A stretch of DNA of 64,000 nucleotides from Candidatus Latescibacterota bacterium (GTDB lineage: Bacteria; Latescibacterota; UBA2968; UBA8231): the NCBI GenBank assembly GCA_965248265.1, contig CBDFJF010000002.1, positions 2,176,001-2,240,000 on the forward strand, given 5' to 3'. Of this stretch, positions 28,653-55,392 are shown piece after piece. Both the position numbers and the translations under genes were made by a program. Numbering within the stretch: the stretch's first letter is position 1; the number at the start of each line of letters is the position of its first letter. Under the pieces are notes generated by a model, which was not told where the DNA came from, made no database searches, and saw only the letters and a list, made by a program, of their open reading frames with translations.

Positions 28653-29003
28653 ATAGGTCAAATAAGGAGTATTATCGTTAGTCTATTTCGGTGGTGTTGT
28701 GTTGTTGAGGGGTATTCGAGGTGGTCTGACGGCCGAACGAGCAGGTGTCGGTCCCGAACTGGCGGGTGTGAGGGTCGATTGGTTGAGCAGGGGCGGCCGA
28801 TTGGCCGATGTCGGTAAATGCAAGGGCGGATTCGGGCGCAGGGCTTGCTCAGCGGACGCCAACGCCCGACTATCACCGCCCCTGTATCACACGGCGAATT
28901 CGGATTGAGGTGAGGGTCGTGCCGCTGCGATCGATGGAGGGCGGGCCGGCAGCCCTACCCCTTCCAGGTAGCGCCGGATCAAGTGCGGCTCGGTCAGGGC
29001 GAG
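28653..29003 (-). mobile_element. IS91-family remnant: transposase C-terminus plus 235-bp oriIS end (copy A1)
   Basis: Minus strand ALTEPHLIRRYLEGVGLPARPPSIAAARP...stop (28887-28889) matches the transposase tail at 54.9 kb; ends ...TTGACCTAT. Confidence 0.85.
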
Positions 29004-29123
29004 TGATTCTGCTTTCGGCTTCAAGTCGCAGAGGACATGCTGAGCGCAGGGATGTCACAAGCGCCGACTGGCCTTGAGAGGCCGTTGCGATGGCCTCTTC
29101 CCTTTCCGAAGATTCTGTCTATT

Positions 29124-29891
29124 ATGGACGACACTATGACAGAAGAAGAGAGATTCCTCTTCGACCTCGAGGGTTACCTGGTGGTGCCCGGTGTGCTCTC
29201 ATCGCAGGAAGTGACACAGCTGAACGAGCTCGCCGACGAAGCCTGGCCCGGAGAGCACGACGAAACAGGTTTGCGTCGCACGTCGAACGTGTCGCAGTGG
29301 GGACCCCGCTTCCGCGACCTCATCGACCATACCAACATCGTGCCGTATCTGATCGAGCTTCTGGGTCCCAAGTTCCGCATCGATCACGACTACTGCATGT
29401 TCATGCGCCGCGGAACCTCTCGCAGCCGCCTGCATGGAGGTCCCTCACCGCATAGCTACGAAGGCGACCACTGGTATCGCTTTCACCCCGACGGCACGAT
29501 CCGCAATGGTCTCACCGTCTTCACATACAATCTGAGCGACTGCGGTCCGGAGGATGGTGGCTTCGCCTGCGTACCAGGCAGCCACAAAACCAATCTGAGG
29601 TCGGGCATTCCGCAGGACGTGATCCGCTTCGAACGGGATGCTCACTATGTGCGGCAGCCTCCCGTCAAGGCGGGAGACGTCATCATCTTCACCGAAGCGT
29701 TGGTGCATGGCACGCTGGCCTGGGATGCCGACCACGAGCGCCGGGCTTTGCTGTACAAATACAGCCCCGGGCACTCATCCTGGAGCAGCACCTACTACGA
29801 TCCCGATGACTACCCGGGCGCCACGGAGCAGCAGATTCGCATCATGGCGGCGCCCTCAGTGGGGTCCCGGCCCGATTCAGTGCAGGTATGA
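29124..29891 (+). CDS. Phytanoyl-CoA dioxygenase (PhyH) family protein
   Basis: FLFDLEGYLV, LHGG, DGGFACVPGSHK, AGDVIIFTEALVHGT, RRALLYKY. Confidence 0.92.
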   Translation: MDDTMTEEERFLFDLEGYLVVPGVLSSQEVTQLNELADEAWPGEHDETGLRRTSNVSQWGPRFRDLIDHTNIVPYLIELLGPKFRIDHDYCMFMRRGTSRSRLHGGPSPHSYEGDHWYRFHPDGTIRNGLTVFTYNLSDCGPEDGGFACVPGSHKTNLRSGIPQDVIRFERDAHYVRQPPVKAGDVIIFTEALVHGTLAWDADHERRALLYKYSPGHSSWSSTYYDPDDYPGATEQQIRIMAAPSVGSRPDSVQV

Positions 29892-30085
29892 ATGGTAAGA
29901 CGAACTGTGACAGCGGCGAAATGGGACGCTGCAGTTGTGCCGTCTGTGTCATCGTACGAAAACCATCCTCCCTCGCCGAATCCTGAGATGACGGGGATCT
30001 GCGATCCCGCGGGCGAGATTGGCTGCGAGCAGCCGTCAGCAGTGCTCGTCGCTGGCCCCACGGATTGGGGGTAGGCTGTGCGGGG

Positions 30086-31255
30086 TTACGATGGGGTCGT
30101 TGCCAGGCGGCCCAGTCTGGCGTCTTCGGCGGCCAGCCATTCGTAGTAGGGCCGCGGCAGAGGCTCAGGCAAGCCCAGACCGGCTTCCTCCCGCCACCGC
30201 AGCAATGGGTTGCGGCGATCCTCCTGTGGCAGATCCACGCGGCAGCCGTACGCCCCCGATTCGAAAATGGCCATCAGGATCTCGATCACGTGCCGGGCCT
30301 CTTTGCCGCTGCACTCGTGCTCGCGATTCTGGTCCAGGGCCTGTACGTATTCGTCGGCAAAACAGTAGTCGGCTTCATCGGCTGCGCCGTCAGGGTCGTA
30401 TGTTTGCGCTGAGATCGGTTCGAGCGCCTGCCATTGACCGTCGCCTGTTGGTACGTCGTGCGGGACCGGAAGGTAATACGCGGCTCCGCTCTTCCAGAAC
30501 AACCTGCCTTCCGTGCCGTAGATCTCCAGACAGTAACCTGTGGAATCCACTTTGGGGAAACGGTGCTGTAGCAGCGTTCCGGTGACGTTCCCCTCGAACT
30601 CCAGTGACGCAGTCGCACGCTCTCCCGCCACGTACCCCATGCCGCTGGCGGCTGGAACCACGTCGTTCGGAGTGATACGGCGTCCGTCTGTGAGCACCGT
30701 CGACGAGACGCTGCGACAATGGCCGGCGACTCCGATAATGTTGTTGAGCATGTGGGTTCCGATGTTCCTCAGTCCGTAACCGGCGTAGTACCCCTTACCG
30801 CTACCGAGGAGATACCTGAGCTCGCCGATGCGCCCTTCATGTAGCGCTCGCTGCACGGCTCTGAAATGCCCGCCTGTCCTGCCCTGGTGATGGACGGCGA
30901 TTCGCACCCCTTGCGACTGCGCCCGTGCCAGTAGCTTGTCAGATTGCTCCAGATCGACGCACATCGGCTTTTCGACGTCGATGTGCACTTTGTGTTCGAG
31001 TACGCCCATGGCCAACTCGTAGTGAAACTCGGTCCCTGTCGGGATGGCGACGATGTCCGGCTTTGTCTGCTCGATCATCTCGTGGTAGTCGTTAAACCGC
31101 GCAGGTACACCGAATTCTTCCCCCATCGCATCGAGTCGTTCCTGGACCAGATCACAAAGGCCGACCAGCTCGGTGCGGAGGTGCTGATCGTATCCTCTGG
31201 CGGCAGCTGTCCCCCGTCCTCGACAACCCAGAATAGCCACACGATACATCTTCAC
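30086..31255 (-). CDS. Gfo/Idh/MocA family oxidoreductase
   Basis: VAILGCRGRG, KPDIV, VEKPM, IGTH, EIYGTEGR. Confidence 0.92.
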   Translation of the reverse strand: MKMYRVAILGCRGRGTAAARGYDQHLRTELVGLCDLVQERLDAMGEEFGVPARFNDYHEMIEQTKPDIVAIPTGTEFHYELAMGVLEHKVHIDVEKPMCVDLEQSDKLLARAQSQGVRIAVHHQGRTGGHFRAVQRALHEGRIGELRYLLGSGKGYYAGYGLRNIGTHMLNNIIGVAGHCRSVSSTVLTDGRRITPNDVVPAASGMGYVAGERATASLEFEGNVTGTLLQHRFPKVDSTGYCLEIYGTEGRLFWKSGAAYYLPVPHDVPTGDGQWQALEPISAQTYDPDGAADEADYCFADEYVQALDQNREHECSGKEARHVIEILMAIFESGAYGCRVDLPQEDRRNPLLRWREEAGLGLPEPLPRPYYEWLAAEDARLGRLATTPS

Positions 31256-31284
31256 TTATCAACTCCTTTGTTCGCATCAGTAGA

Positions 31285-31335: not shown

Positions 31336-31459
31336 TCGTCTTAGGGCTAAATGGTGGCGACAGAGGAAATCGTCGAGGAGACCGACAAGTATTACGACTG
31401 GCGCGGGCGGGGGATCTTGTGCAAGGACGTAATCAGCCCTATTCCTGTGGAATGCTGAC

Positions 31460-32061
31460 GTGCGCCAGAACCCCATAATGGCCCTTGCTGTGGCAGCGGA
31501 GAACGTCTTGGCAGAGCAGGCCAGCCGCGAGGGTTCCCTGGACATCGACTCCCGATTGCAGCTGTTCGTCGATGACTACCTGGTAGACGAGCTGCACGGG
31601 ACTCGACTCGTCCTCCACCACCCTCGTCCGGCAGGGGTGGCCCTGAGATTCGATCGGCCCTGGGAGGGTGCCTTCTGTGCCTACGTGACCGTGCTCCACG
31701 TCGGCGACATCTACCGCATGTACTACCGGGGACAGCCCAACGCCATGCCGGACGGAAGCTTTGGCGAGGTGACCTGTTACGCCGAGAGCCGTGACGGGAT
31801 CCACTGGGAGAAGCCCGATCTGGGGCTGTTCGAGGTCGCAGGGACGCGGAAAAACAACGTCGTTCTGGGCTCCGAGTATGCGCCCGTGCCCACAACTTCA
31901 TCGCGTTCGTGGACACTCGGCCCGGGATTCCTTCCTCCCAGAGATACAAGGGCCTGGGGGGCATGTTCCCCATATCCGAGGAGCAGCGCTTCAGCAACGG
32001 CCTCCTGGGCTTCACCTCCGCGGACGGGATCCGATGGAGGAAGATCCAGCAGGCACCGAGA
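31460..32061 (+). pseudogene. Frameshifted, 3'-truncated five-bladed-propeller glycosidase-like gene
   Basis: RLQLFVDDY, DRPWEG, YRMYYRG, YAESRDGIHW; frameshift near 31890 continues HNFIAFVDTRP...RYKGLGG...SADGIRW; ends at an oriIS-like end. Confidence 0.8.
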
Positions 32062-32135
32062 ATAGACAAATAAGTGGCGTTATGGTGAGTTTAGATCCGT
32101 CTGGGCCGTGGTGTCGAGCGCTTTTTGAACGGCGG
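32062..32135 (-). mobile_element. Diverged IS91-family oriIS end (copy A3)
   Basis: ATAG-ACAAATAAGTGGCGTTATGGTGAGTTTA aligns with ATAGGTCAAATAAGGAGTATTATCGTTAGTCTA of copies A1/A2; the downstream GTGGTGTCGAG is also shared. Confidence 0.6.
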
Positions 32136-32411
32136 AAGCCGGGTTTGAGGCCATCGACGGGCATTGAGAAGGAGAGGAATCCAGGGCTGAGCGTGTTTTT
32201 GTATCGGCCGCAGTTCTACTGCTGCGAAGACATGGACGGGGCACTCGAGCGGGCTCGCGCCGATGGCATCGAGCTCGACGAGGAGACGATCGAGCTCGCC
32301 TCGATGAAGGAAAAGGGGTAGCTGAAGGAGATCGTGAAAAAGTACACCGCGCCGATGCAGGGCCTTGGCTGAAGCCACGGACGGCTTATCTGTCGGCGCC
32401 TGAGCTCTCGC

Positions 32412-33497
32412 CTATCCGAGTCGCAGCGAGCGATCCTCCAATGGCAGATTGACCCGGACGTTTCCGCGGCGGTGGGATTCTCTCATGGCGATGGCGATCT
32501 CCAGCGCTTCGCGGCCGAACTCGCCGGGGCAGATGCGCTCCTTCCCGGCATCGATCGAGCGGCAGACTCCTTCGATGGCGTCGACCATGGAGCTGCGCGG
32601 ATGCCAGGGGTTGGGAAACTGGCGCTGCACCGACGCTCCCGTTTCAGGATCCGTCGTCCACAGCTCGAACTGCGCGTGAGCGTTGCGCGACACGATGCGG
32701 CCGACGTCGCCTATGAACTCATGCGTCCATTGGCGACCGCCGTCACTCTCGGATCGTGAGTTGAGAAAACCTCGGACGCCGTTTTCGTACACGATGTACC
32801 CGGAGCCGCACAGATCGCTCTCGGCGACCGCCTCTGCGTCGCTGTCCATGTGGCCGAAGACCCATTGGGCCGGAGCGTCGGCGAACAGTCGCATCAGAGA
32901 GAGCATGTGGCTGCCCATGTTTGACAGACCTGAGGCGCTGTGGCAGATCATCGAGCGCAACTCGCCGATGGTGCCGTCGGCGATGGCCTGACGGGCGTTC
33001 GTATACCAGCCGTACCAGTTCAGGTGGCAGGCCATGGCGAGAATGGTGTTGTGTCGACGGCAGGCGTCGATCATGGCGTCCGCCTCGGCCAGGGTGCGAC
33101 ACATCGGTTTGGTGGCGAAGATCGCTTTCACGCCTGACTCGGCCAGACCGACGACGACATCGGCCCGCTCCGCCGGCCGCGTGGTCACGGCGACGAGATC
33201 CGGCTTCTCCTTCTCGACCATCTCGCGGTAGTCGAGGTAGAGCGCCTCGACCTTCCAGCGGCGGCGGAAGTCATCGAGCTTGGCCTGGTCGATGTCGGCC
33301 GCGGCCACGAGCTCGGCGCCGCGCGCCTCGATGATGGCCGGCGCGTGGGCCCACGGCCACGGATAGTGGGCCATGCCGATGTGCTCGTCGTCAATGGTGC
33401 TGCCCATGCGGCCGCAGCCGACGACGGCGGCGCGGTAGATTTTTGACGGCCGCGTCTCCTCGATAATGCGAAACGCTTCGCCTCGGACTCGAGCCAT
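32412..33497 (-). CDS. Gfo/Idh/MocA family oxidoreductase
   Basis: AVVGCGRMG, EKPDLV, ATKPM, MGSH, ALEIAIAMRES. Confidence 0.92.
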   Translation of the reverse strand: MARVRGEAFRIIEETRPSKIYRAAVVGCGRMGSTIDDEHIGMAHYPWPWAHAPAIIEARGAELVAAADIDQAKLDDFRRRWKVEALYLDYREMVEKEKPDLVAVTTRPAERADVVVGLAESGVKAIFATKPMCRTLAEADAMIDACRRHNTILAMACHLNWYGWYTNARQAIADGTIGELRSMICHSASGLSNMGSHMLSLMRLFADAPAQWVFGHMDSDAEAVAESDLCGSGYIVYENGVRGFLNSRSESDGGRQWTHEFIGDVGRIVSRNAHAQFELWTTDPETGASVQRQFPNPWHPRSSMVDAIEGVCRSIDAGKERICPGEFGREALEIAIAMRESHRRGNVRVNLPLEDRSLRLG

Positions 33498-33523: not shown

Positions 33524-35161
33524 TCAAGCGCCGGCGACGTGCAGTTGGACGCCGTCCACGAGAATGGGCGTCTGCATCGACTCGTCCCGCCTGCTCAGCT
33601 TGAGCTCGAGCGTGTTCCCGCCGCGCCGGACCTGGGACGGGTCCAGTCCGCACTCCAGCCATCCACCTCCCTGCGCCGTCCTTGCGACGGACTGGACCTC
33701 CTCGAGGGGCCGGTTGTTCAAAGCCACATTCAGCTCGTCGCCGTCGGTGAGATCCCACAGGTGCAGACGGAATCGCAGCCTCTGCGGATCCGCCGACGAC
33801 AGATCGTCACCCACCTGGAACGACAGCTCGACCGGGCGCCCCGGCGTCAGCCCGACGTTTTCTGCGGTCTCGAACCGCCCGCGTTCGCCCGTGACCTCGT
33901 CTCCGAGAAACCGGTCGACCCCGAAGAGCTTCTCCTTGCCCGCCATCGTCTCGGGATCGCCGATCTCGAACCAGGTCTCGGGCACGCCGAGGCCCGGATT
34001 GAAAACGTAAACACCATCGGCACCGTCGTTGAAGACGTTCGTCGCCACCGCCCGCCACACCGCCGGCCGGCCCTCCCACTCGTTGAAGACGACGATGTAT
34101 GTGGGCTTGCCGAGGCGCTCTGGCTGGCCGCCGTAGAGCGTCTTGAGCCACGAACTGAAGGCCCTGTGCTCCCCAGCGCCCAGCGCCAGGTAGACCCACT
34201 GGCCCCAGAAGGCCCACTGCAGGCAGGGGTAGACCGGTACTTCGTGTCGGTGTCCGAAGTCGATGATATCGCGGAACGAGTCGCACATCGGTGAATCCTC
34301 GTTGCCGCCCGGCATCAGCTTATCGATCAGATTCTCGCCCAGCCAGGTCTCCAGGTCGACGCCGACGAACAGCGAGTCCTCGAGTGTGGCCGGCGTGTGT
34401 GCTGCCAGCAGCAGCGGCCGGCCTCTTCTGGCGCCGACCTCGTCGGCCATCCGGCGAATGCGGCGCACGAAGTCGTTCATCACTTCCACGTGCTCCTCGC
34501 TCACCGGCAGACCCTCGCGCGACTCGCGGAAGTACGGGTGGTACTTGAAAAATTCCATGGCGATGACGTCGACGTCGTAGTTCTCGGCCACTTCCTCGAT
34601 GACGGCGAAGTAGTGATCCCGCACCTCCTTGGCGCCGTAGTCGAGGCCCGACCACGCCTCGCCGGACTCGAAGTCATCCAGCTCGCCCATCATGCATTCG
34701 GGATGCTCGCGCTTGAACGGGGCGAGACCGTAGGAAGTCCAGCGTCTCGAACCCGGGGCGTAGGAGTCGTGGATGTCGTTCATGCGCAGCGACCAGCCGA
34801 ACTCCATGCCGTGCTCGCGGCTGAAGTCCTGCTGCACCTGCACCGTATCCTTGCCGTACTGGTCGATGAGCTCCTGCGGCATTCCCCTGCCGATGAAACC
34901 GCCCAGTTTCGTGTGGTGGGAGAACGTCAGACCCGCCATGCAGCTGCAGAACCAGTTGCTGTCCACCTGGGAGCCGATCAGCGGCGTGCTTCGCGCCTGC
35001 AGGAAGTCACCCATAAGCTCCCCGCTGGTGCGCACCGTCAGGCCCTCGGCGACGTCGTGTTCGCTCTCGGCGCCGTCACGCGCGTAGATGGCATCGTCGC
35101 CGTCGTTGTTGTAGATGATCCGCCGGCGTCTCCAGCGCGCTGCCCTTCGAGCTTCGTCCAC
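33524..35161 (-). CDS. Putative glycosyl hydrolase-like (GHL10-type TIM barrel) protein
   Basis: RRRIIYNNDGDD, SLRMNDIHD, LDYGAKEVR, YDVD, GADGVYVFN. Confidence 0.7.
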   Translation of the reverse strand: MDEARRAARWRRRRIIYNNDGDDAIYARDGAESEHDVAEGLTVRTSGELMGDFLQARSTPLIGSQVDSNWFCSCMAGLTFSHHTKLGGFIGRGMPQELIDQYGKDTVQVQQDFSREHGMEFGWSLRMNDIHDSYAPGSRRWTSYGLAPFKREHPECMMGELDDFESGEAWSGLDYGAKEVRDHYFAVIEEVAENYDVDVIAMEFFKYHPYFRESREGLPVSEEHVEVMNDFVRRIRRMADEVGARRGRPLLLAAHTPATLEDSLFVGVDLETWLGENLIDKLMPGGNEDSPMCDSFRDIIDFGHRHEVPVYPCLQWAFWGQWVYLALGAGEHRAFSSWLKTLYGGQPERLGKPTYIVVFNEWEGRPAVWRAVATNVFNDGADGVYVFNPGLGVPETWFEIGDPETMAGKEKLFGVDRFLGDEVTGERGRFETAENVGLTPGRPVELSFQVGDDLSSADPQRLRFRLHLWDLTDGDELNVALNNRPLEEVQSVARTAQGGGWLECGLDPSQVRRGGNTLELKLSRRDESMQTPILVDGVQLHVAGA

Positions 35162-35255: not shown

Positions 35256-35479
35256 TCACCAGTCCACGACGGCACCGTCGTCTCCGCTGTACGATTCCGG
35301 ATTTGCCCCGTTATCCTCATCGCCGTTCCGCAGTGCGTCGTCGAGATAGTCGTCGTCGAGCTCGACACCCAGCCCCGGTCCGGTCGGCAGTTTGAGGAAT
35401 CCGTCCTCCACTGCGAACGGTTCCTTCAACACGCCTTCCCCCGGCCGCAATACGCCGGCTCCTTCCTGGATCAGGGAGT
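35256..35479 (-). pseudogene. 3' remnant of an enolase-superfamily (galactonate dehydratase-like) gene
   Basis: SLIQE...EDGFLKLPTGPGLGVELD...DDGAVVDW; cut off by the IS end at 35480. Confidence 0.85.
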
Positions 35480-35714
35480 ATAGGTCAAATAAGGAGTATT
35501 ATCGTTAGTCTATTTCGGTGGTGTTGTGTTGTCGAGGGGTATTCGAGGTGGTCTGACGGCCGAACGAGCAGGTGTCGGTCCCGAACTGGCGGGTGTGAGG
35601 GTCGATTGGTTGAGCAGGGGCGGCCGATTGGCCGATGTCGGTAAATGCAAGGGCGGATTCGGGCGCAGGGCTTGCTCAGCGGACGCCAACGCCCGACTAT
35701 CACCGCCCCTGTAT
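35480..35714 (-). mobile_element. 235-bp IS91-family oriIS end without transposase (copy A2)
   Basis: Near-identical to 28653-28887 (one mismatch seen by eye); no target-site duplication. Confidence 0.88.
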
Positions 35715-35985
35715 GATTGGCACGGGAAGCTCCACGACGTCGTCTACGGCGCCTGCTCGTTCCCGCCCTCGTGCCGGGTCGATGACCCGCAGACACAGGA
35801 AGGCGCCATTCTCGCGCACGCCGTTGTTCTCAGGGGAGCAACAAATCGGCAGCTACGAGCGCTTCTGGGACGGGCGCGACGACGCCCGCAGGCTGGCGCC
35901 TCCGGGTGTATACCTGTATCAACTGACCACGAAGACCCACGAGCGCCGCTTCGTCGAGACCGGAGAGGTGCGCCTGGTTTACTGA
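35715..35985 (+). pseudogene. 3' remnant of an FlgD-domain protein gene
   Basis: LFSGEQQIGSYERFWDGRDD...PPGVYLYQL...RLVY-stop with no N-terminus. Confidence 0.75.
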
Positions 35986-35986
35986 C

Positions 35987-37972
35987 CTACCAGACGTGGA
36001 CGCGGTGGCCCTCGTCGGGGAACCAGATGCCGTCGACGATGCCGGACAGTGCTACGGCCGCAGCGTAACCCAGGCCTAATCCGTAGAACAGGGGCTTACC
36101 TCTCTGGTAAGCCTGCACCCCTCCGTAGCGCAGCAGGGCGGCCTTGATGACCCACACGAGGAGCAGGCTGAACCAGTAGTTTGCCGGGCCCGCGGCGTTC
36201 TGGAAGGCGAGACCGACTGGATGCAGCGGGAACCAGTGAAAGCGGCTGCGCAGATAGGCGAGAGCTCCGGCCTCTGACATGCCCGCCACCCACACGCCCC
36301 ACTTGCCGATGTCGAACACCCTGGGATGCTGCACCAGGTTGGCAGTCTGTGGGTAGACGTTGAAAGCGTGGATCAGGTGGACGGCGCCCCCCTGGTCGTA
36401 GGCGACTTCGATGCTGGCCCAGGCCGCCACCAGGCAGCCGATCGTGAAGGCGATGAGGACGACGGCGCAGACGCGGCCGCGTTGCCGGCGCAGCGAGAAT
36501 ATGCGCAGGTGGTGGGGGATCGCGGGCCAGGCCGGAAGGCGGATGTTGCCGAAGAAGGCCTGGCTCGTGAACAGCTTGAACGCCACCACGTTCTTCGTCG
36601 ATAGGATGCTGGAGCCGACCAGTTCGGTGATGAAGGAGCCGCCCTTCATGTTGGCCCAGCTCGGCATCAGGTAGGGGAAGCCCGTGGCGGCGATCAGCTT
36701 GACCGTGACGAAAAACGTCATCGCCATGAGCAGGAACGTGCACACGGCTAGGGGCACCGTCGCCCCGAGGCTGACGCCGAAGCCGATGACGTAAACGGCT
36801 GACAACGTCATTCCGATGAAAGCAAGCCGATACATTCCGACCTGTCCGGCATCGCCGGTGCCGCCCCTGACCTGTCGCCAGACCTGGCCGAGATGGCGTC
36901 GCGCCAGCCATACCGACCAGATGGCGATGAGGACGATGGCGCCGAAACTCTCCAGATGCAGGATGTCGGAACTGATCAAGCGCTGGCCGGAAGCGCCGAC
37001 GCTGACCCCGAATTGATCCATGGCCCCCAACTTGAAGACGGAGAGCAGGTAGAAGAGGATGATGCTGCCCAGGATGTCGAGCGGGCACAGGTAGGTCACC
37101 GCCAGCACAAGGGGCAGGATGCGGATGGTCAACGCCGGAAAGGGCTGCGGCAAGGGGATGGTGTAGCGCTCGCGGAAGACCTCCACCATGGGCGCGCCCG
37201 GGCTGAAATAGGTGGCGATGTTGTAGAGCAACGGCAGGAAGACGATGCCGAAGCCGGCCCAGAACAGACTGGAGCGGAACAGCTCCGGCATGCGCCGGGG
37301 ACCGTCGAAGCCGCGCGTCAGTTCGAGGGGCATCTGAGCCAGTGGAAAGGTGAGCTTCTCGTTGTCCACCCACTGGCGGTGGAAGAGGATCATCAGACAG
37401 AGTCCGAACACGACCATGGCCAGCGAAGCTCCGCCCCACTGCGCGATGATGCCGATCCACACGTCCCACGGAATTGAAGCGCCATCCGGCAGGCCCAGCC
37501 ACAGGGGATCGATGACGCGTGGCTCGGGCCCGGGAAAGGCGTTCCACGGCATGAAGGGGACGATGAGGGTGTCCCACTGGTTCTCCGGCGTCGGCATGAA
37601 GGACGGCGCGCCCAGTATGGCGACCCAGTAGTCGCTCCACCCCCACATCGGCAGCGCCCCGACGATCCAGGTCATCGAGAACACGGTGAGCAGCTCGCCG
37701 CGACTCAGGGCCACGCGCGGCCACACCCGTTTGAGGGCCACGTTGAAGAACAGCCACAGCACGAAGGGGATGACGGCCACCATCGGGTACTGCGACTGCA
37801 CGAGGTTGATCCCCATGAACAGGATCAGGTAATAGAACCAGACTGCGATGGTAACGGCCCCGACGAGGACTCCGCGCCAGGTGATCGTCAGCTTGTCGTC
37901 TTCGGCCGGTAAGTCAGACCCCCGACTCGCGTGGGGCTGGGTTACGTCAGCTGCTTGAGCGGGGTCGGGCAA
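35987..37972 (-). CDS. DUF6785/DUF6784-type polytopic membrane protein (putative transporter)
   Basis: Many TM helices; LSRGELL, TPENQW, RQWVDNEKLTFPL, WFPLHPVG, LLRYGG. Confidence 0.8.
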   Translation of the reverse strand: MPDPAQAADVTQPHASRGSDLPAEDDKLTITWRGVLVGAVTIAVWFYYLILFMGINLVQSQYPMVAVIPFVLWLFFNVALKRVWPRVALSRGELLTVFSMTWIVGALPMWGWSDYWVAILGAPSFMPTPENQWDTLIVPFMPWNAFPGPEPRVIDPLWLGLPDGASIPWDVWIGIIAQWGGASLAMVVFGLCLMILFHRQWVDNEKLTFPLAQMPLELTRGFDGPRRMPELFRSSLFWAGFGIVFLPLLYNIATYFSPGAPMVEVFRERYTIPLPQPFPALTIRILPLVLAVTYLCPLDILGSIILFYLLSVFKLGAMDQFGVSVGASGQRLISSDILHLESFGAIVLIAIWSVWLARRHLGQVWRQVRGGTGDAGQVGMYRLAFIGMTLSAVYVIGFGVSLGATVPLAVCTFLLMAMTFFVTVKLIAATGFPYLMPSWANMKGGSFITELVGSSILSTKNVVAFKLFTSQAFFGNIRLPAWPAIPHHLRIFSLRRQRGRVCAVVLIAFTIGCLVAAWASIEVAYDQGGAVHLIHAFNVYPQTANLVQHPRVFDIGKWGVWVAGMSEAGALAYLRSRFHWFPLHPVGLAFQNAAGPANYWFSLLLVWVIKAALLRYGGVQAYQRGKPLFYGLGLGYAAAVALSGIVDGIWFPDEGHRVHVW

Positions 37973-38236: not shown

Positions 38237-39505
38237 TCACTGCAAGGCGCAATTGTACAGCTTCGCGGGGTTATCGCGGAAGGCCGCGCGCGCCACATCC
38301 AGGGCGACGGACTCCGACAGAGATCCTTCCTCTATCATCTCCGCCAGGACGTGAGCGAAATTCCACCGCGCCATCTTCAGGTGGCCGTAGACGGCTTCCA
38401 GATGCTGCAGGTCGTCGCCGAAGGCGATGATCTTGTTGCAGGGGACCATGCGCAGCCACTCGCGCAGATCGGCGCGGGCGCCGATGGGGGAGATGATGTG
38501 GATCCACGACATGTTCAAATAGACATTGGGAAAGGTCTTACCGAGGACGGCCCCCTCGCGCAGGTAGGGATAGCCGGCGTGCGACAGGTCGAAGCGAGCC
38601 TCGCGGAAGGTCGACATGAGCTCCGTCAGCGGTGCTGGACTACATCCTTCCATGCCGACGAAACTCGAGGCTCTCATACCCTGGTGAAACTGGACAGCGA
38701 GCCCGACTTCGGATGCCGCCCGGCAACACTCGAAGACGAGGTAATCCTCGAGCAGCGCGCCCTGAGGCGAATTGAGGCCGTCGTAGTCGTCGCGCATGAA
38801 GCGGTCGAATATCGCAGCCGCCTCCGCCGGGTCACGTCGCTGGAAATCCATGCGCCGATGGTAAGACTGAGAAAGCTTCACACCTGCCGCTTCGGCCTGC
38901 GCCCAGCTCTGGCAGGTCCGTGCGATCAAGTCGACGAGTCCCGGGAGGTCGGACACCGTGGCATCGTAGTCCTTCTCGATGCCGTGTATGTCTGCGGCCG
39001 AGTTCAGCATGCTGAAGCGGTTCAGGCGCGGCAGCGGCAGGAAGAATTCGCGATCCACCTCGACGAGGTCGTTCATGTTGACGACGGAGCGCTCGATATT
39101 GCTGCGGCGCTTCAGCACGTCGGTGTAGAGCCCGGGCTGAGCCCGCTGACGCAGGGCTTCGTTGATCGGCTCGATTGTGCCGGCGCTCAGTCCGTCGAAG
39201 CCGAGGAGGTCCCGCACGCCTTCCACGATGGCTTGAGAGTAGCCCGTCAGCCGGATCGACTTCCAGAACTCGGAGAAGATCTCCCAACGCTGAGCCAGCG
39301 GCAGGCCCGGCTGCAAGGCCTGCTCTATCTGCTCCTCACTCATGCCGGCACAACGCAGGTCCGCCACCGGATAGGCGTGCTCGAAGTACTTGAGAATGTC
39401 GGGCTCGAGCTTCAGGTACGCTGCCTCCGGCATCATGTGGGAGTGAGAGTTGATGCAGGGGATCTTGCGAATCTCGTCGAACAGCTCGCTGCGCAATGGA
39501 CTCAT
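38237..39505 (-). CDS. Amidohydrolase-family protein (uronate isomerase-like)
   Basis: INSHSH, VQFHQG, FDLSHAGYPY, PNVYLNMSW, KIIAFGDD. Confidence 0.85.
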   Translation of the reverse strand: MSPLRSELFDEIRKIPCINSHSHMMPEAAYLKLEPDILKYFEHAYPVADLRCAGMSEEQIEQALQPGLPLAQRWEIFSEFWKSIRLTGYSQAIVEGVRDLLGFDGLSAGTIEPINEALRQRAQPGLYTDVLKRRSNIERSVVNMNDLVEVDREFFLPLPRLNRFSMLNSAADIHGIEKDYDATVSDLPGLVDLIARTCQSWAQAEAAGVKLSQSYHRRMDFQRRDPAEAAAIFDRFMRDDYDGLNSPQGALLEDYLVFECCRAASEVGLAVQFHQGMRASSFVGMEGCSPAPLTELMSTFREARFDLSHAGYPYLREGAVLGKTFPNVYLNMSWIHIISPIGARADLREWLRMVPCNKIIAFGDDLQHLEAVYGHLKMARWNFAHVLAEMIEEGSLSESVALDVARAAFRDNPAKLYNCALQ

Positions 39506-39718
39506 CTTAGCGGTTGACTCCTGTCTGTGACCGGCTCTGGACGAGGTCGGGACGGCCGTGCGTGCATAACGAATTGATTTTATTCAGCATGCGCAAGTGC
39601 GATCGCCGGATTGCCGGACCGGGCACCGTCCTGATTACAACGCCGCCGGTGACACTTTTGCGCTTGGGAAGTGTCGCAATAGGGACCGCGACAATACCTT
39701 CTAAGAGGAGACACTACG

Positions 39719-46613: not shown

Positions 46614-48530
46614 CTACCATCCCCCCAGCGGAGAATTGCCCTGGTGACCGGTGACGTAGTCGATGACGAGCCAGGTCCCCGACGTGACGAAGGCCCCCAG
46701 GATCATCCCCATGAAAAGGTACCGGCTGTGGCTGTAAAGATTGCCGCCGCCATACTTCAGCACCACTACCTTGGTGAGCCAGGCGATGAAGACGCTGAAC
46801 CACATGAACCCGGAGGTAAATACAGTTCCGCTGATGGCCAGACCGAGGGGATGAACCGGCCACCAGGTGACGCGCTGCTGGACGAACATCAACAACCACA
46901 TGACGCCGGCGCCGAATCCGGTAAACAGCCAACCTGCCGCCTCCGTCACCGAGGGCGTCTGGATCATGGCGGCGATGTAGGTCAGGGGAAAACTGGAGGA
47001 ATGTTTCCAGAACCAGGGCGACAGGTTGATGCCGCCGCGCGTGTACGACAGGTGGATGACCATCCAACCGGAGGCGCACAGCGTAACGACGACAGCCAGC
47101 ATCATCCCCAAGAACGCCGCTCGCCGCTCTCTGCCGATGAACTCGGAGACCATCCTGAGTCCGTTGGCGGCTGCCGCCATCGGGAACGTGACGATGTCGG
47201 CCGTCCACGGATAGGTGTATGCCAGGCCGGTGAGGCCGGCGCCACCCAGCGTCGACGTGCCGAAGCTCGCCATGACAAAATCGGGAGCGATCAGCGGCGC
47301 TCGCAGCAGGGCGACCCCGGCCTCGACGACGATGCGTGTTATGGCCAGAAACAGCAACAACGCCACGGTGAGAAAAACCGGTACGACGAACAGCGGTATG
47401 CCTGCCGCGTTGAGCCACAAGAGCATGACCGCCAGTCCGGCTAGCAGGCCGAACACGGCGGCCCTGTAAGACAGGATTTCGTCGTCATCCCTCACGCTGT
47501 CGTCACCGGTGAACGCCTTGCGAAGGACATCTCGCAGGTGGGATCGCGCGTTCCACAAGACGAAAAGGGCGAACATCAACATGGCGCCCAGAGCCTGATG
47601 GGTGAGAAAGGGGGAGCTCGGGTTGCTGAACCATCCGAGTCGCTCGCTGGTCTGGAAACCGACGACGTTGAACAACTCCTGTTCCAGCAAGGTCAGCCAA
47701 TAGAAGAGCCAGATTCCCAGCGCGAGAGACTGGTGGATGAAGTAGGAGAAGCCGGTCAACGGGAAGGAAAAGTGCAAGGGGACATTGCGGTCGCGAAAAA
47801 CATCCAGGGACGTGGTGAGGTGAACGCTCGGCACGGACGGGAAGTAGCTGCTCAACCCGTTGAGTGTTCCCACGAGGACCGGCAGGGCAAAACCGACCCA
47901 CATGACGGTGTTGCGGAAAAACCGCGATTCGCCTGAGGCCATGCGCGCCGGACCGACCAGCTCCATCGCCGTGAGCATCATCGGGTAGGCGAGACGCTCG
48001 CGTTCCATCCATTGCCGGCGCACGATCACGACTACACAGATGGACACGAGATAGAGGGCCAGCAGGAACAGGAGCCACCATGAGAGCGACTCGAGCCAAC
48101 CCCCCCAGGGAATCGATTCTCCGAGTGGCATACCTTCGTAGAATCCCCTGATCAATTGCGGGTCGCTCGGCGCTATCCAGGTGGGAATGTGCGGGTGGAT
48201 GAGGGTCTCCCAGTTGTTCTCAGGGGTCGCGTAGTAGAAAGCGCCAGTGATCATCGGCAGCAGATGCTGGACCAGGCCGAACGTCGGAATCGAAGCGGAG
48301 ACGAGCATCATCACGAAGATCAAGGCCAGCTCTTCGCGTTTCAGAGCCAGCTGCCGCGACGCGCGGCGGACGAGCAGGTTGGCCGCCACGAGATAGAAGA
48401 GCAGGAAGAACGCCACCGGGCTGGCGAAGCTGGATGCCATGAAGGTGCCGCGGATGATGTTGCGGGCGTAGGGCGTTCCGGCCCCTATCAGGAGGCTGAG
48501 CAGAGAGCCGATCAGGAGTGCTCTGAGCAT
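46614..48530 (-). CDS. DUF6785/DUF6784-type polytopic membrane protein (putative transporter)
   Basis: GAGGAGG RBS; YYATPENNW, RRQWMERERLAYP, WWPVHPLG, LKYGG; paralog of 35987-37972. Confidence 0.85.
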   Translation of the reverse strand: MLRALLIGSLLSLLIGAGTPYARNIIRGTFMASSFASPVAFFLLFYLVAANLLVRRASRQLALKREELALIFVMMLVSASIPTFGLVQHLLPMITGAFYYATPENNWETLIHPHIPTWIAPSDPQLIRGFYEGMPLGESIPWGGWLESLSWWLLFLLALYLVSICVVVIVRRQWMERERLAYPMMLTAMELVGPARMASGESRFFRNTVMWVGFALPVLVGTLNGLSSYFPSVPSVHLTTSLDVFRDRNVPLHFSFPLTGFSYFIHQSLALGIWLFYWLTLLEQELFNVVGFQTSERLGWFSNPSSPFLTHQALGAMLMFALFVLWNARSHLRDVLRKAFTGDDSVRDDDEILSYRAAVFGLLAGLAVMLLWLNAAGIPLFVVPVFLTVALLLFLAITRIVVEAGVALLRAPLIAPDFVMASFGTSTLGGAGLTGLAYTYPWTADIVTFPMAAAANGLRMVSEFIGRERRAAFLGMMLAVVVTLCASGWMVIHLSYTRGGINLSPWFWKHSSSFPLTYIAAMIQTPSVTEAAGWLFTGFGAGVMWLLMFVQQRVTWWPVHPLGLAISGTVFTSGFMWFSVFIAWLTKVVVLKYGGGNLYSHSRYLFMGMILGAFVTSGTWLVIDYVTGHQGNSPLGGW

Positions 48531-48546
48531 GGGGCTCAGGTCCTCC

Positions 48547-48690
48547 TCACATGATGAATTCGTGCACGTCGTCGAGCCAGGCGAATCCCTCCGCATTGTC
48601 CAACTTGTAGGCTCCACCCATCAAAAAGATCCGATCTTCGGTGGCGGCTGCCGGCATCCAGGCTTTCTTGACCAGCCCCCCTTGCGCGGT
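48547..48690 (-). pseudogene. 3' remnant of a Kelch-repeat-like protein
   Basis: ...AAATEDRIFLMGGAY...WLDDVHEF-stop abutting the RBS of the next gene; no credible N-terminus. Confidence 0.5.
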
Positions 48691-51264: not shown

Positions 51265-51397
51265 CCGCAGTGACCGGCGTCGCTGTTGGATGAACGTTGC
51301 TTCAGTTTCCAACAGGCTCAGCAACGTGCCCGAAGGTTTGCCCAAGTCGTGAGATCGCATCCAGCGGAAGCGGGCCTTTCTCAATGTGCACGTCTTC
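51265..51397 (-). repeat. Diverged duplicate of the aldo/keto reductase 3' end and its downstream spacer (55389-55527)
   Basis: EDVHIEKGPLPLDAISRLGQTFGHVAEPVGN versus EDVQIIEKGPLPPAAISRLGQTFGHIAEPVGN, plus the shared 3' non-coding sequence. Confidence 0.9.
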
Positions 51398-51416: not shown

Positions 51417-51488
51417 GCGTTGAGTTTGAAGCGGGTGCTGCATATCGGCTCGTACCAGACCGCCTGGGCGATGCTACACCGGCTGCTC
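51417..51488 (+). mobile_element. IS1595-family transposase fragment
   Basis: ALSLKRVLHIGSYQTAWAMLHRL resembles the ALxLQRxLGLGSYxTAWxxLHxL HTH motif of IS1595/ISXO2 transposases. Confidence 0.7.
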
Positions 51489-51496
51489 GGTGACGG

Positions 51497-51738
51497 ATAG
51501 CAACGATTAGGGACCATTACCGATAGACCAAACCGGCGGTTGAGGGCTGCGTTGGGGCGATCGAGGTGTGGGTGGGATGGTTTGGCGGGGGATGAGTGTC
51601 GTGGTCGGGCGACGACCCTCACCCGCCCCCGCAAGCCCAAAGTACCCATCCCGTCCATCACAAAAGCTCAGATTTTCATTCAACACCAAGCCGCGCGGGC
51701 GATCTTGACTACCTGTAACGGGCCCTTATCGTTCTTAT
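51497..51738. mobile_element. Two IS91-family oriIS ends fused back to back (copies B1 and B2)
   Basis: The left ~120 bp match 54611-54733. The termini are imperfect inverted repeats, ...GGTCCCTAATCGTTGCTAT and ...GGGCCCTTATCGTTCTTAT, each followed by CCGT. Confidence 0.75.
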
Positions 51739-51765
51739 CCGTGATAGTCGAGACGAGCCGTGTAG

Positions 51766-51941
51766 CGGTGGCGGCGGGTCGAGCGGGCTTACAGCTACTG
51801 CGCCAGCAACGACCCTCGTGTCCACTGCGGGTTGGGAGCCGCGACGGTGGTGGACAAGGTCACCGTGTACTGGTCGGACGGCACCACGAGCGAATTCGGA
51901 CCTCTCGAGGTCGACGGACTCACGTCCTCCACCGAGACTAG
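51766..51941 (+). pseudogene. C-terminal ASPIC/UnbV remnant of a CRTAC1-family gene
   Basis: WRRVERAYSYCASNDPRVHCGLGAATVVDKVTVYWSDG in a frame not listed in the ORF track. Confidence 0.8.
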
Positions 51942-52024
51942 GAGCCTGTCCGAGTATTCGCTTTGACAGGCGGCATTACAGAATTCTCAGCGAAACAGGA
52001 GCCACGGCAGCTTCTGAAGCTCTC

Positions 52025-54601
52025 ATGGTATATCTGATATTCTTCATCTCCGGCATCAGCGGTCTCGTGTATCAGGTCATATGGATCCGGCAGTTTGGAT
52101 TGGTCTTCGGCAATACCATCTATTCGTCCTCCATCGTCATCGGCACGTTCATGCTGGGCCTCGGGCTTGGCAGCTATGTAATTGGCTCATTCGCCGACAA
52201 GAAGTACCGCCAGGGCCCCTCGCACGCATTGAAGCTGTACGCGATTTCGGAGGTCTTGATAGCCGGCCTCGGCCTGAGCATAGCCGTTTTGCTGCTCCAT
52301 CTGGAAGGGCTGTCGAGTACGATCACCGCCTACAGCACCGGAGAGCACGGTTGGCACTATGTCACCTTCTCATCCTATCTGATGAGGTATGTCATCGCGG
52401 TTGTCACCGTCTTTCCGATCACCTTTGTGATGGGAGGTACCCTTACCCTTCTCATCCGATTCTTGGTAAGAGCGAATCTCTTAAATGCGGGCTGGCATGT
52501 CGGTCTACTCTATGGATTGAACACGGCGGGTGCGGCTCTGGGTTGTATCCTCGTTGACTTCTTCGCCATCCCCAACTTCGGCCTGTTCAGTGCCCAGGCT
52601 CTCGCCGCCCTGCTCAATCTGATCGCGGCCCTCGGTGCCTTATGGATGTTGAGGATTCAACGGCGTGAGCCTCAAGATGATCCCAGCCGCGATGCTCCAG
52701 GCGAGACTTCGGTCCGCGGCGATCGAAATCGTTCATTCACCTTCGTCGTCGTAGCTATTGTCCTGTCCGGTTTTGCCGCCATGGGAATGGAGATCGTCTG
52801 GTTCCGATTCTTGACCAGCGCTGTCGGACAACTCCGATCCGTATACTCCATAGTGCTCATGGTCGTACTGATCGGAATCTGGATCGGGTCCATGGCTGGA
52901 GGACATCTCACGCGTGTCTTCAAAAGGCCCGCCGATCTGTACATCCTCTCTCAGTTGCTGTTCGCGTTGACCTCTCTGATCGCCTTCTTGATCGTCGACG
53001 GTGGCTCGTACGGATTCGATCAACGACATCTACGGTCATCGACCACCTTGACCCACATCTGGTCTATTCTGCATCCGACATTGGTGTTGATGTTTGTCCC
53101 GTCGGTGTTCATGGGAGTCGCGTTTCCTCTCGCGAATGCTATCGTCCAAGACAGTGAACACCAGGTCGGCCGCAGAGCCGGAGTGCTCTATCTGGCCAAT
53201 ACCCTCGGTGCTCTGGGTGGAAGCATTCTGTCGGGTTTCGCTCTGTTGCCCATGCTGGGGATGAAGTGGAGCATACTGACGCTCCTGACCGTGGCAGCTC
53301 TGGTTGCAATCCCGCTCCTCCTCCTCTCCGACTCGGAAGAGAAAAAGACCACACCGAGCAGAAGACCTCTCAAACCGGCCATGGTGATGCTGTCTGCGAT
53401 GCTGATCGCCGCTCTCGTAAAATGGTGCCTGCTTCCCGCTGACACTCTGCTCAAGAGCTCCGTGGCCAGGGAGGGCAAGTCGTACTTCAAGCATCCCTAC
53501 CTCGTGAAAACGAGCGAGGGCATCCTCGAAACCATCGTTATATTGAATTTGCCGCGCGGTGAAAGAGCCCTGATCACCAATGGACACCTCATGTCCAGTA
53601 CGAACCGGCAAACCCAGCGTTATATGAGGGCCTTTTCACACATTCCCCTGCTGCACCTGAGCGAACCCACGAACGCTCTGGTGATCTGCTTTGGTGTCGG
53701 GAACACGGCCCATGCGGCGGCCCTGCATCCATCCCTGACCAACATTGAGGTGGTCGAACTATCCAAGCATGTTCTCGAGCACGCAGGATACTTCAGGGAG
53801 GCCAATCAAGATGTCCTGAACGATCCCCGGGTTTCGGTATTCGTGAACGACGGGCGACAGCATTTGCGGATGCAGGAGCGTGACAAGTACGACCTCGTTA
53901 CTCTGGAACCCCCGCCGATCAAGCACGCCGGAACCGCTTCACTCTACTCCCGTGAATTTTTCGAGTTGGTCAGAAGTCGCCTCAAGTCCGGAGGATTCCT
54001 GACGCAGTATTTGCCACTGAGCCAACAGCCCGCACCCATCATCAAGTCGATGATCCGCTCCTTCGTCGATGTATTTCCACATACGATTATGCTTTCCGGT
54101 GCCACGAGCGAGTGTATTCTGGTCGGGCGGAAAGATGAAAGAATTGATCTCGAGCCGGCCTCAGTGAGTGCGAGAATAGCTCGAAACCCGAAGCTGCAGC
54201 AGGATCTGAGCAAGATACGGATCAACTCTCTGACTGACATCGCTGGTATGTTCGTAGCGGATTCCGAGTCGCTGTCGGAGGCGGTCGAAGATGTCGCGCC
54301 GGTTACCGACGATTTTCCCATCATGGAGTACGGCACGGCGGGCTCTCATGATCCAGCTCCGCCAATCGACCTGATCAAGACCTGGAGGGCCAAATCGTGG
54401 TGCGCCAGCTGCTATGAAGAAGGGAGTCCAATCCCGGAACTTGCCGACCTGGATATCTATCTCCGGCTGATACAGGCGGTATTCGCAGAAAAGGCGAGAG
54501 ACCCCACATCACCGAGTTATCTGTTGAAGATCGACAGTCCAAACATCATCAGAACCATCGAAAGCCATCCATTCCTGCAATCACTGTTCACCAAGAGATA
54601 G
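52025..54601 (+). CDS. Fused membrane (MFS-like)/spermidine synthase-like protein
   Basis: SGISGLVYQVIW, LYGLNTAGA, LYLANTLG, LVICFGVGNT, VVEL, DGR, YDLV, LYSREFF, TDDFPIMEY. Confidence 0.9.
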   Translation: MVYLIFFISGISGLVYQVIWIRQFGLVFGNTIYSSSIVIGTFMLGLGLGSYVIGSFADKKYRQGPSHALKLYAISEVLIAGLGLSIAVLLLHLEGLSSTITAYSTGEHGWHYVTFSSYLMRYVIAVVTVFPITFVMGGTLTLLIRFLVRANLLNAGWHVGLLYGLNTAGAALGCILVDFFAIPNFGLFSAQALAALLNLIAALGALWMLRIQRREPQDDPSRDAPGETSVRGDRNRSFTFVVVAIVLSGFAAMGMEIVWFRFLTSAVGQLRSVYSIVLMVVLIGIWIGSMAGGHLTRVFKRPADLYILSQLLFALTSLIAFLIVDGGSYGFDQRHLRSSTTLTHIWSILHPTLVLMFVPSVFMGVAFPLANAIVQDSEHQVGRRAGVLYLANTLGALGGSILSGFALLPMLGMKWSILTLLTVAALVAIPLLLLSDSEEKKTTPSRRPLKPAMVMLSAMLIAALVKWCLLPADTLLKSSVAREGKSYFKHPYLVKTSEGILETIVILNLPRGERALITNGHLMSSTNRQTQRYMRAFSHIPLLHLSEPTNALVICFGVGNTAHAAALHPSLTNIEVVELSKHVLEHAGYFREANQDVLNDPRVSVFVNDGRQHLRMQERDKYDLVTLEPPPIKHAGTASLYSREFFELVRSRLKSGGFLTQYLPLSQQPAPIIKSMIRSFVDVFPHTIMLSGATSECILVGRKDERIDLEPASVSARIARNPKLQQDLSKIRINSLTDIAGMFVADSESLSEAVEDVAPVTDDFPIMEYGTAGSHDPAPPIDLIKTWRAKSWCASCYEEGSPIPELADLDIYLRLIQAVFAEKARDPTSPSYLLKIDSPNIIRTIESHPFLQSLFTKR

Positions 54602-54610
54602 CCAAAACGG

Positions 54611-55392
54611 ATAGCAACGATCTCTTTAGGCCATTACCAATAGTCCAAAACGGCGGTTGAGTGCTTGGTTGGTGCGATTGGGGTGTGGGTGGGATGGTTT
54701 GGCGGGGGATGGGTGTCGTGGTCTGGCGACGACGGGCGCCCGGTGGGGAAGGTGGGGGCGGATTTTCTGCGATCTTAGCCGGTTTTGAGGCCGACGGATC
54801 AGAGCTGGACGCAGCCGTGCCCGGGCGCGCGGCCGTCGCATGTGCCGTGGCCTGGATTCAACCGCGCTGAACTCGAGCTTGGTTTGCGGCGGTGATCTCG
54901 GTGGCGCGATGGGTGGCGGTTGATCGGGCAGGACCCACGCCCTGCAGGTATCGACGAATGGAGGCGGGCTCGGTAAGGGCGGCGATGACCCGCATGCGTC
55001 CGCCACAGCGATCGCAGGTGCTGACGTCGATGGAAAAAACCCTCGCCAGCAGGACAGCCCACGCGAGTCTTTGCGGCATGTGGTGGGGGCACGGATCGCG
55101 GTCCTCGCCGCACGGCTCGGGGGGCTCCTGCTGCGGCACGATCTTGTCGCGGTCGCGGGCGCTGGGGGCGAGGATGCCATGATAGCGGATGAGATTGACC
55201 CGGGGTGGAGGCACGAGGGCGGCGAGTTTTTCCAGCAACTCATGGGGCGTGACACCGTGCACGGAGGCGGCGGTGAGGGCGGCCAGCAGGGGCTCCTAGT
55301 CGGCGAGGGGATCGGCCTGGGAATCGTCGAGCAGGCCGCGTTTGGTGCACAGCCGGATGACGCGACGAGCCGTGGTCTCGACGATCTGCCGC
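54611..55392 (-). mobile_element. Degenerate IS91-family element: transposase pseudogene plus oriIS end (copy B3)
   Basis: ELLEKLAALVPPPRVNLIRYHGILAP...WAVLLARVF..D...CxxCGGRMRVIA; internal stop, deletion and frameshift; ends ...ATCGTTGCTAT|CCGT. Confidence 0.9.

Follow-up and report, generated by a model that had tools for sequence, protein, structure and literature searches.

Putative ISCR-like oriIS stubs at rearrangement breakpoints in a glycan-catabolic region of a Latescibacterota genome

How was a region rich in glycan-catabolic genes put together in a Candidatus Latescibacterota bacterium, and what part did mobile elements play in it? The stretch studied here, called the window, comprises the 64,000 nucleotides (nt) at C2:2176001-2240000 of a 7.32 Mb genome that consists of two contigs, C1 and C2 (assembly GCA_965248265.1; C2 is CBDFJF010000002.1). 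An earlier, sequence-only reading of the window had recognized six IS91-family oriIS ends at the junctions of a catabolic mosaic and had proposed that one-ended transposition of ISCR-like insertion sequences (IS) stacked blocks of catabolic genes there. We find that the region is a real but ordinary field of IS91/ISCR remnants at rearrangement junctions. The six stubs are probably 5'-truncated ISCR-like remnants that mark these junctions and arose by ori-anchored truncation, and it is possible that catabolic genes between them were transported.

All six ends were found at the positions and in the orientations given by the earlier reading, five on the minus strand (28653, 32062, 35480, 51497, and 54611) and one on the plus strand (51738). 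In element orientation they share the motif GACTA..(C)GATAA..N..CTTAT-N4-6-C(C/T)TAT. The bases that follow it are TCTC at 28653 and 32062, ACTC at 35480, and CCGT at 51497, 54611, and 51738; the left three ends all belong to an xCTC subgroup and the right three all belong to a CCGT subgroup. No complete ISCR-like element is present inside the window. Each stub measures 120-780 nt and retains the putative oriIS (...TTAT-N4-6-CTAT) and four bases that appear to be element-borne, while the transposase gene and the terIS side are gone. The stubs and the remaining pieces of transposase genes are:

28649..28887, minus strand: stub 1, putative oriIS, 235 nt plus terminal TCTC, 99% identical to stub 3
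28896..29000, minus strand: transposase tail matching about amino acids (aa) 440-474, directly upstream of stub 1, with the frame stop at 28887-28889
32058..32200, minus strand: stub 2, putative oriIS, about 140 nt, TCTC subgroup
35476..35714, minus strand: stub 3, putative oriIS, 235 nt plus ACTC
51493..51616, minus strand: stub 4, putative oriIS, type A of the CCGT subgroup, about 120 nt, 86% identical to stub 6
51615..51742, plus strand: stub 5, putative oriIS, type B of the CCGT subgroup, about 124 nt
54607..54742, minus strand: stub 6, putative oriIS, type A' of the CCGT subgroup
54921..55394, minus strand: broken transposase upstream of stub 6, lacking an internal stretch and the N-terminus (aa 351-459 and 212-259 remain)

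The two transposase pieces, 29000..28896 (-) and 55394..54921 (-), are the tails that the earlier reading had noticed beside two of the ends, and family scans of the transposase pieces in the window gave matches to Y2_Tnp (E 6.7e-6) and ISCR_clade_Ia (E 2.7e-22). An independent profile was built from 15 ends, all of them outside the window and downstream of transposase sequence (13 from this genome and 2 from other genomes). It recovers four of the six window ends (32062, 51738, 35480, and 28653) at E values of 8e-10 to 1e-5 and gives no matches on 20 shuffled windows. The diverged pair 51497 and 54611 is not recovered by the 15-end profile. These two ends are 86% identical to each other across about 125 nt, and upstream of 54611, at a distance of 310-783 nt, lies a correctly oriented transposase fragment. 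Homologues of stub 2 occur at C2:2708577, 2769680, 2780162, and 2799197, and the stretch of stub 5 is matched at 24 further sites in the genome. It was considered that this type-B stub might be a discrete mini-element; this was rejected, as the inner break points vary among 25 aligned copies. Stubs 4 and 5 lie tail to tail with their ori ends pointing outward. A second case of this layout (51493-51742) is found at C2:944467-944594, where two outward-facing ori ends of about 60 nt form a 127-bp unit that could be a snap-back product or a derivative resembling a miniature inverted-repeat transposable element.

What kind of element do these ends belong to? Pfam Y2_Tnp has 16 matches in the genome, and four of them are full-length, with open frames of 471-521 aa. 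Three of these four intact transposases were scanned; all contain Zn_Tnp_IS91 (E ~1e-19) and Y2_Tnp (E 1e-26 to 1e-28) domains. An H-x-H motif is seen in the translated transposases. The intact proteins match the NCBIfam model ISCR_clade_Ia over positions 18-484 of 509 (E 1e-111 to 1e-117), and the IS91 model matches the same proteins much more weakly (E 1e-30). Since their ISCR_clade_Ia scores of 378-391 bits are far under the curated cut-off of 925 bits, they represent a distant branch. The end motif is located 196-311 nt 3' of near-complete transposase genes (C2:1844055, 2800223, and 2467282). It also follows an 87%-identical transposase homologue by 291 nt on a contig labelled Chloroflexota (L016), and a 78%-identical transposase fragment by 276 nt in a metagenome-assembled genome labelled Candidatus Latescibacterota (L023). 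In the IS91 family, oriIS is described as following the transposase gene on its 3' side, and for ISCR1 a conserved 22-bp right end is given that finishes TTTAT-ACTT-CCTAT-ACCC (PMC13023784). Ends in the present genome share this layout, for example TTTAT-CGGT-CCTAT-ACGT. From their position downstream of Y2 transposases and their ISCR1-like layout, the six sequences are identified as oriIS (3') ends of ISCR-like IS91-family elements, rolling-circle transposons driven by an HUH/Y2 transposase. The identity proposed by the earlier reading is thus borne out by the transposase domains, the spacing of the motif, and the likeness to the ISCR1 end.

The four intact open frames lie outside the window and would in principle be able to act in trans, as that reading had supposed. 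For one full-length element, C2:1842308-1844059, both boundaries were placed, the left one via comparison of copies. Its flanks (...GGTGTTGC and AGAAGCCG) are not repeats and there is hence no target-site duplication; its ends are unlike each other, and there are hence no terminal inverted repeats. This result describes the one full-length element, the six stubs having no second end. The transposase gene of the intact element at C2:1844055 (element A) shares only 68-69% nucleotide identity with the other three intact transposase genes, and its closest relative in the genome is a frameshifted copy (77.6%). No full-length ISCR-like element is present in the genome as two near-identical copies. 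Given the low identity among full-length transposases, there is no sign of a full-length element that is currently multiplying. A repeat of about 400 nt at C2:1845599-1846000, which recurs on both contigs in at least 10 copies that are 100% identical, is probably an active IS of another family; its identical copies contrast with the ISCR-like elements, which lack identical full-length copies.

Where exactly does each element stop? The origin of the four bases after CTAT was traced at four junctions whose flanks have close homologues:

32062: GAGA (plus strand); ACTG in both flank homologues; 0/4 match, the preceding bases being identical
Intact element at C2:1844055: ACGT; AGGG in five interrupted-transposase homologues and AGAG in one; 2/4 match (five) and 1/4 (one)
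28653: TCTC; ATTC in the flank homologue; 2/4 match
51497: CCGT (element strand); CCAA in the flank homologue; 2/4 match, in an alignment with a 2-nt gap

Across the four junctions the four bases match the flank homologues at 6/16 positions, and the adjoining 6-12 bases match fully or nearly (11-12 of 12 at element A). Inside a subgroup the four bases hardly vary. In the pattern-match list, ACGT stands after 5/5 ends that finish ...TATCGGTCCTAT, and the L016 end likewise continues with ACGT; the xCTC subgroup comprises nine junctions, including that of L023. We infer that the four bases travel with the element end, as is the case for the final four of ISCR1. If they are element-borne, the true termini would be 28649, 32058, 35476, 51493, 54607, and 51742. 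A target-derived tetranucleotide beside oriIS, a feature of IS91, IS801, and IS1294, was not found here. The ends at C2:2725789, 2769676, and 2788277 (and also 1800744) are cut at ...CCT, after which they continue with a common sequence, CGTATAAT..., which points to a further repeated element with insertion sites at or close to the ISCR terminus.

The DNA on the two sides of the stubs was then compared with homologues. The gene fragments and genes at the junctions are:

28532..28650, minus strand: heparinase II/III fragment, last ~37-40 codons (28538-28648), outer flank of stub 1
31433..32057, plus strand: 5' part of a GH32-like propeller glycosidase gene (~209 of 513 codons), on the outer side of stub 2
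35676..35828, plus strand: internal gene fragment next to the inner edge of stub 3; its homologue, C1:447562-448842, encodes 426 aa and has no family hit
51417..51492, plus strand: IS1595-family transposase fragment, 26 aa, outer flank of stub 4
51265..51397, minus strand: duplicate of an aldo-keto reductase 3' end, 133 nt, 90% identical to 55389-55525, outside stub 4
51760..54601, plus strand: fused MFS/spermidine-synthase-like gene, bracketed by stubs 5 and 6, both of whose ori ends face it
29037-29891, plus strand: PhyH-like gene, apparently intact, between stubs 1-3
30086-31255, minus strand: GFO/IDH/MocA gene, apparently intact, between stubs 1-3
32412-33497, minus strand: GFO/IDH/MocA gene, apparently intact, between stubs 1-3
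33524-35161, minus strand: GHL10-like gene, apparently intact, between stubs 1-3

The stubs coincide with breakpoints between unrelated DNA. At none of the six (0/6) are the flanks the halves of one interrupted gene, and here the earlier reading holds. It had also named five truncated genes. Three of them, the heparinase, the propeller glycosidase, and the IS1595 transposase, are indeed fragments abutting stubs, and the piece of the 426-aa-family gene is one more. The other two were not confirmed. Where the "dehydratase" had been read at 35480, a 122-aa frame has neither a family hit nor a homologue in 30 relatives, and in place of "UnbV" at 54611 the flank holds the 3' end of the fused MFS/spermidine-synthase-like gene, which is apparently whole. 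The orthologue of this gene in a related genome (G015) aligns from 51760 through the stop at 54600, and no truncation is visible. An intact heparinase II/III paralogue lies at 43111-45375. On the inner side of stub 1, the transposase tail ends 36 nt before the apparently whole PhyH-like gene on the opposite strand. The GH32-like fragment (31433-32057) shares 96% identity with C2:1230424-1231120 and 93% with a gene of G002; on the inner side of stub 2, about 210 nt of DNA without assignment lead to the GFO/IDH/MocA oxidoreductase gene. The upstream part of the 426-aa homologue on C1 is absent at the junction of stub 3, whose outer end lies 318 nt upstream of the intact 545-aa GHL10-like gene. 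A search for members of this GHL10-like family gave 290 homologues at E<=1e-10; among the best 120 of these, lengths of 531-558 aa predominate. The source gene of the aldo-keto reductase duplicate is found at 55427-56395.

The stubs of the window belong to a genome-wide population of at least 55 ends. This number comes from a profile search at E<0.01, which places 52 of the ends on C2; a second end model, made from sequence alone, gave 65 matches in the genome. A near-full transposase gene adjoins only 3/55 ends. A partial transposase gene or tail accompanies 12/55, a further 5/55 have only a neighbour's transposase sequence more than 950 nt upstream, and 35/55 have no transposase sequence. 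When transposase loci were counted along the protein, 6-7 loci cover aa 25-75, 11-13 cover aa 175-325, 14-15 cover aa 375, 19-28 cover aa 425, and 31-33 cover aa 455 (the last from the two queries that reach so far). Loss proceeds inward from the ter side and the ori side is spared, a gradient that random decay would not yield. Y2_Tnp fragments of relatives are likewise biased to the C-terminal domain, with matches in 23/41 genomes of the family. The ends are concentrated in the middle of C2, where the interval 2.6-2.8 Mb holds 15 of them and the interval 2.2-2.4 Mb another 10. Of the pairs of neighbours less than 10 kb apart, 17 genome-wide have the same orientation and 5 do not, a split to which regional orientation bias could contribute. 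The sequence-only end model, trained on this genome, has few matches in other genomes of the family, and G015 yields 19 Y2_Tnp matches and no ends by it. An exact 23-nt scan of metagenome contigs for the 32062-type end returned a single stretch; it lies in unrelated DNA of low GC content that shows no likeness to a transposase, and the match is one of chance.

The identity, orientation, truncation pattern, and breakpoint position of the six stubs are seen in the sequence, and ori-anchored truncation and rearrangement is probably how they arose. Elements of the xCTC and CCGT subgroups would first have inserted here repeatedly and locally. Ori-anchored events would then have swapped the ter-proximal part of each copy for other DNA; abortive or intramolecular rolling-circle events and ori-sparing deletions are candidates for this step. 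Each stub would have been left to mark a junction of unrelated pieces, some of them gene fragments, and gene conversion between paralogues may have added more patchwork. Orthologues of the intervening genes in G015 and G031 (~70-82% nucleotide identity) are scattered over megabases, and none of 11 loci retrieved around homologues from G002, G005, G007, G015, G018, and G031 contains an end by the end profile (E<=10). This fits, weakly, an assembly of the region in this lineage.

Several points weigh against this explanation. Ori fragments have been copied recently, which simple decay does not explain. Stubs 28653 and 35480 share 235 nt at 99% identity; the intact element at C2:1844055 shares a 161-nt stub at 99% identity with two solo copies, which belong to a 1158-bp tandem duplication; and L023 contains a 221-nt ori stub copy at 100% identity. 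The 5'-to-3' gradient of transposase coverage could also come from early-terminated one-ended transposition, as shown for IS801, and could partly reflect uneven conservation along the protein. The lack of synteny is weak evidence, because the nearest genomes come from other genera and because the flanking 4-24 kb keeps only partial micro-synteny. Contigs from three runs of one sample were compared with the assembly at junctions 35480, 51497, 51738, and 54611. At 35480 and 51497 no contig bridges the junction by at least 31 letters on both sides, the contigs breaking inside repeats, and the three runs are probably the assembly's own source and hence not independent support.

Could the ends nevertheless have carried the genes between them? 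Each block between two same-orientation ends might be a one-ended product, consisting of an ori and its upstream DNA, that was mobilised in trans and stacked stepwise beside the previous ori. We regard such stepwise transport as less likely than IS-anchored truncation and rearrangement and hold it only tentatively. The arrangement of the ends speaks for it. Three xCTC ends lie in the same orientation at spacings of 3409 and 3418 bp. The same layout is seen in L023 (L023:3001-5800; G031/G039), where a transposase tail and ori are followed by a 663-aa open reading frame without an NCBIfam hit and then by an identical 221-nt stub, which begins at the position of the transposase stop codon. At C2:2788277-2789686, two same-orientation ends enclose an oxidoreductase gene that has 82% identity to window 32424-33438, and window 30016-31270 is 99% identical to C1:1462954-1464209, which is also upstream of an ISCR end. 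Furthermore, intact transposases exist in the genome, and the region carries recent partial duplicates of genes located elsewhere. One-ended transposition is reported at 1-14% or more in IS91 and IS1294 (PMC13181058) and is documented for IS801 (PMC3189936).

Against this, no unit of cargo plus ori occurs twice, and the identity of copies stops within IS-derived DNA at 120-240 nt. The oxidoreductase pair is homologous in the coding region only, and its spacers and ends differ. When full-length paralogues were searched by tblastn against the whole genome, no other half of the heparinase gene or of the GH32-like gene turned up at comparable identity. The 99% copy is limited exactly by a ribosome-binding site and a terminator hairpin and fits gene conversion equally, and the full-length transposases are diverged, with no near-identical full-length pair. 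A miniature one-ended product is described as having an intact right end and a left end that starts with a target-like tetranucleotide (PMC3189936). The stubs do have an intact ori end; they have neither a target-like tetranucleotide at the far end nor a second-site unit or a split target. The inner starts of the recent stubs are ATAC for the 235-nt stub (xCTC), GATA for the 221-nt stub of L023 (ACTC), and AACG/ACGG for the 161-nt stub (ACGT). The subgroup tetranucleotide was sought at these three inner edges and is absent, with a loose match in the 161-nt stub only (1/3). The stacking of glycan-catabolic blocks by one-ended transposition, as put forward in the earlier reading, is therefore left without a recurring unit or the other half of a split target, and the published left-end signature is mostly missing. 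The locus C1:1462954-1464823 combines the 1256-bp GFO/IDH/MocA copy, a GH32-like fragment (in an order permuted relative to the window), and an ISCR-like end.

A more doubtful variant treats directly repeated ori ends as cassette boundaries: a transposase acting in trans would run from one ori to the nick site of the next ori upstream and release precise circles of one or a few genes plus an ori, which would re-insert beside other ori ends. It would explain the arrays of same-orientation, same-subgroup ends in the window, at C2:2788277-2789686, and in L023, as well as four element-borne bases after every end. If true, glycan-catabolic genes would here be handled as gene cassettes, much as in an integron but by an HUH enzyme.

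It is improbable that the stubs are miniature non-autonomous elements that inserted alone and that the mosaic has other causes. Ori fragments have been recently copied at 99-100% identity (235 nt, 161 nt, and the 221 nt of L023), two of the three recently copied stubs (2/3) start 1-2 nt from the transposase stop codon, and miniature derivatives, including one of 229 nt, are reported as proven for IS801 (PMC3189936). Yet the flanks at 28653, 32062, 35480, the 51497/51738 pair, and 54611 are unrelated and not halves of one sequence, and the type-B copies break at differing inner positions.

There is only a slight chance that the stubs were kept as outward promoters for the genes beyond them, as the oriIS region of ISCR1 does; such a role would be compatible with the other explanations. 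POUT promoters are documented for ISCR1 (PMC6218425). Three ends contain sigma-70-like hexamer pairs directed toward the terminus (35535-35507, 32117-32088, and 51705-51732), and four ends are followed by an intact gene in the same direction (GH2, GFO/IDH/MocA, GHL10-like, and spermidine-synthase-like). However, the counts of sites are no higher than in shuffles (3 vs. 1.5+/-1.2 and 1 vs. 1.5+/-1.2, with a sigma-70-like pattern that may not be that of this lineage), and the sites are not independent because the ends are homologous.

That the junctions are assembly errors at repeats is hardly credible: repeats of 239 nt (99%) and about 125 nt (86-90%) do sit at the junctions and short-read contigs break within them, but the genome is in two contigs with no N, the contigs from the three runs match without a single mismatch as far as the repeats and span the junctions at 51738 and 54611, and the repeats are short and mostly too diverged to mislead an assembler. 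Nothing points to mis-assembly, and the contig support is neither independent nor complete. Another run (X1), labelled seawater metagenome, gave only short pieces that are 95-99% alike, and no habitat claim is drawn from it.

With truncation and rearrangement as the preferred explanation, how do the stubs compare with known systems? They resemble ISCR1 and its relatives in that the transposase matches the ISCR clade Ia profile nearly full-length, about 200-300 nt separate the 3' end of the transposase gene from the oriIS, and the terminal motif has its counterpart in the 22-bp ISCR1 end, down to a final four bases that appear to stay with the element. The ter side is usually truncated and variable DNA starts right after the end, as in ISCR. 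Unlike in ISCR, the host is not a proteobacterium, there is no integron or resistance gene, and there are many diverged subgroups with differing last four bases. IS801 of Pseudomonas syringae also occurs as ori fragments of a few hundred nt, often beside accessory genes (PMC3189936). Its authors attribute most genomic fragments to reorganisation and not to one-ended transposition (PMC3189936), the same conclusion as reached for the present stubs. Only 5/17 fragments keep the right end in IS801, whereas ori-side fragments greatly dominate here, and the left-end tetranucleotide rule reported for IS801 does not hold for the present stubs (PMC3189936). IS91 and IS1294 share with the present elements an HUH/Y2 transposase, distinct ori and ter ends, a lack of inverted repeats and target duplication, and a tetranucleotide beside oriIS (PMC13181058). 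In IS91, this tetranucleotide is described as target-derived and variable (CTTG 45-72% and GTTC 24-47% across tabulated assay conditions), whereas here it is near-constant per subgroup and mismatches the flank homologues (PMC13181058).

The closest functional parallel is with pesticide-catabolic clusters of sphingomonads, where copies and fragments of IS91-family elements lie among duplicated catabolic genes and one-ended transposition has been proposed (PMC5737581). There, mobilome sequencing gave direct evidence of an 11-kb circle and complete elements stand beside the cargo (PMC5737581); here, only stubs are present and they are known from assembled sequence. The earlier reading had spoken of a role best known for resistance genes. 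This overstates the novelty, since the shaping of catabolic clusters by the IS91 family is already published (PMC5737581). ISCR elements are described as known almost only from proteobacterial resistance regions, and their transposition as never demonstrated by experiment (PMC6218425). A genome with dozens of diverged ISCR-like ends is therefore a natural data set on how such elements end, truncate, and reshuffle their neighbours, and the strong ori-side survival gradient and the apparently element-borne terminal bases are its noteworthy details. A second question is whether ISCR-like elements help to build large, paralogue-rich regions for polysaccharide degradation.

A pair of paralogous membrane-protein genes, each DUF6785+DUF6784, occupies window 35987-37972 and 46614-48617. 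Window 38322-42709 forms a paralogous block with C1:443440-447342 (71-73% identity), an older segmental duplication between the contigs. The GH32-like propeller family is greatly expanded, one member having about 90 tblastn matches of which most are on C2, and the GHL10-like 545-aa family has at least eight paralogues in the genome.

An 86% match of 51760-51949 to a distant paralogue had raised the suspicion that the spermidine-synthase-like gene is chimeric. This was rejected because the G015 orthologue has the same adjacent stretch in another frame, as expected of a conserved non-coding leader. The stretch (about 190 nt) is 84-86% identical upstream of the G015 orthologue and of the distant paralogue, C2:1358237-1358424. 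An Rfam scan of the whole window at the gathering threshold gave no matches, this stretch included, and it is a candidate conserved leader or cis-regulatory RNA. Copies of the leader are in another frame or interrupted by stops, and the proteins encoded downstream of them are only 26-75% alike.

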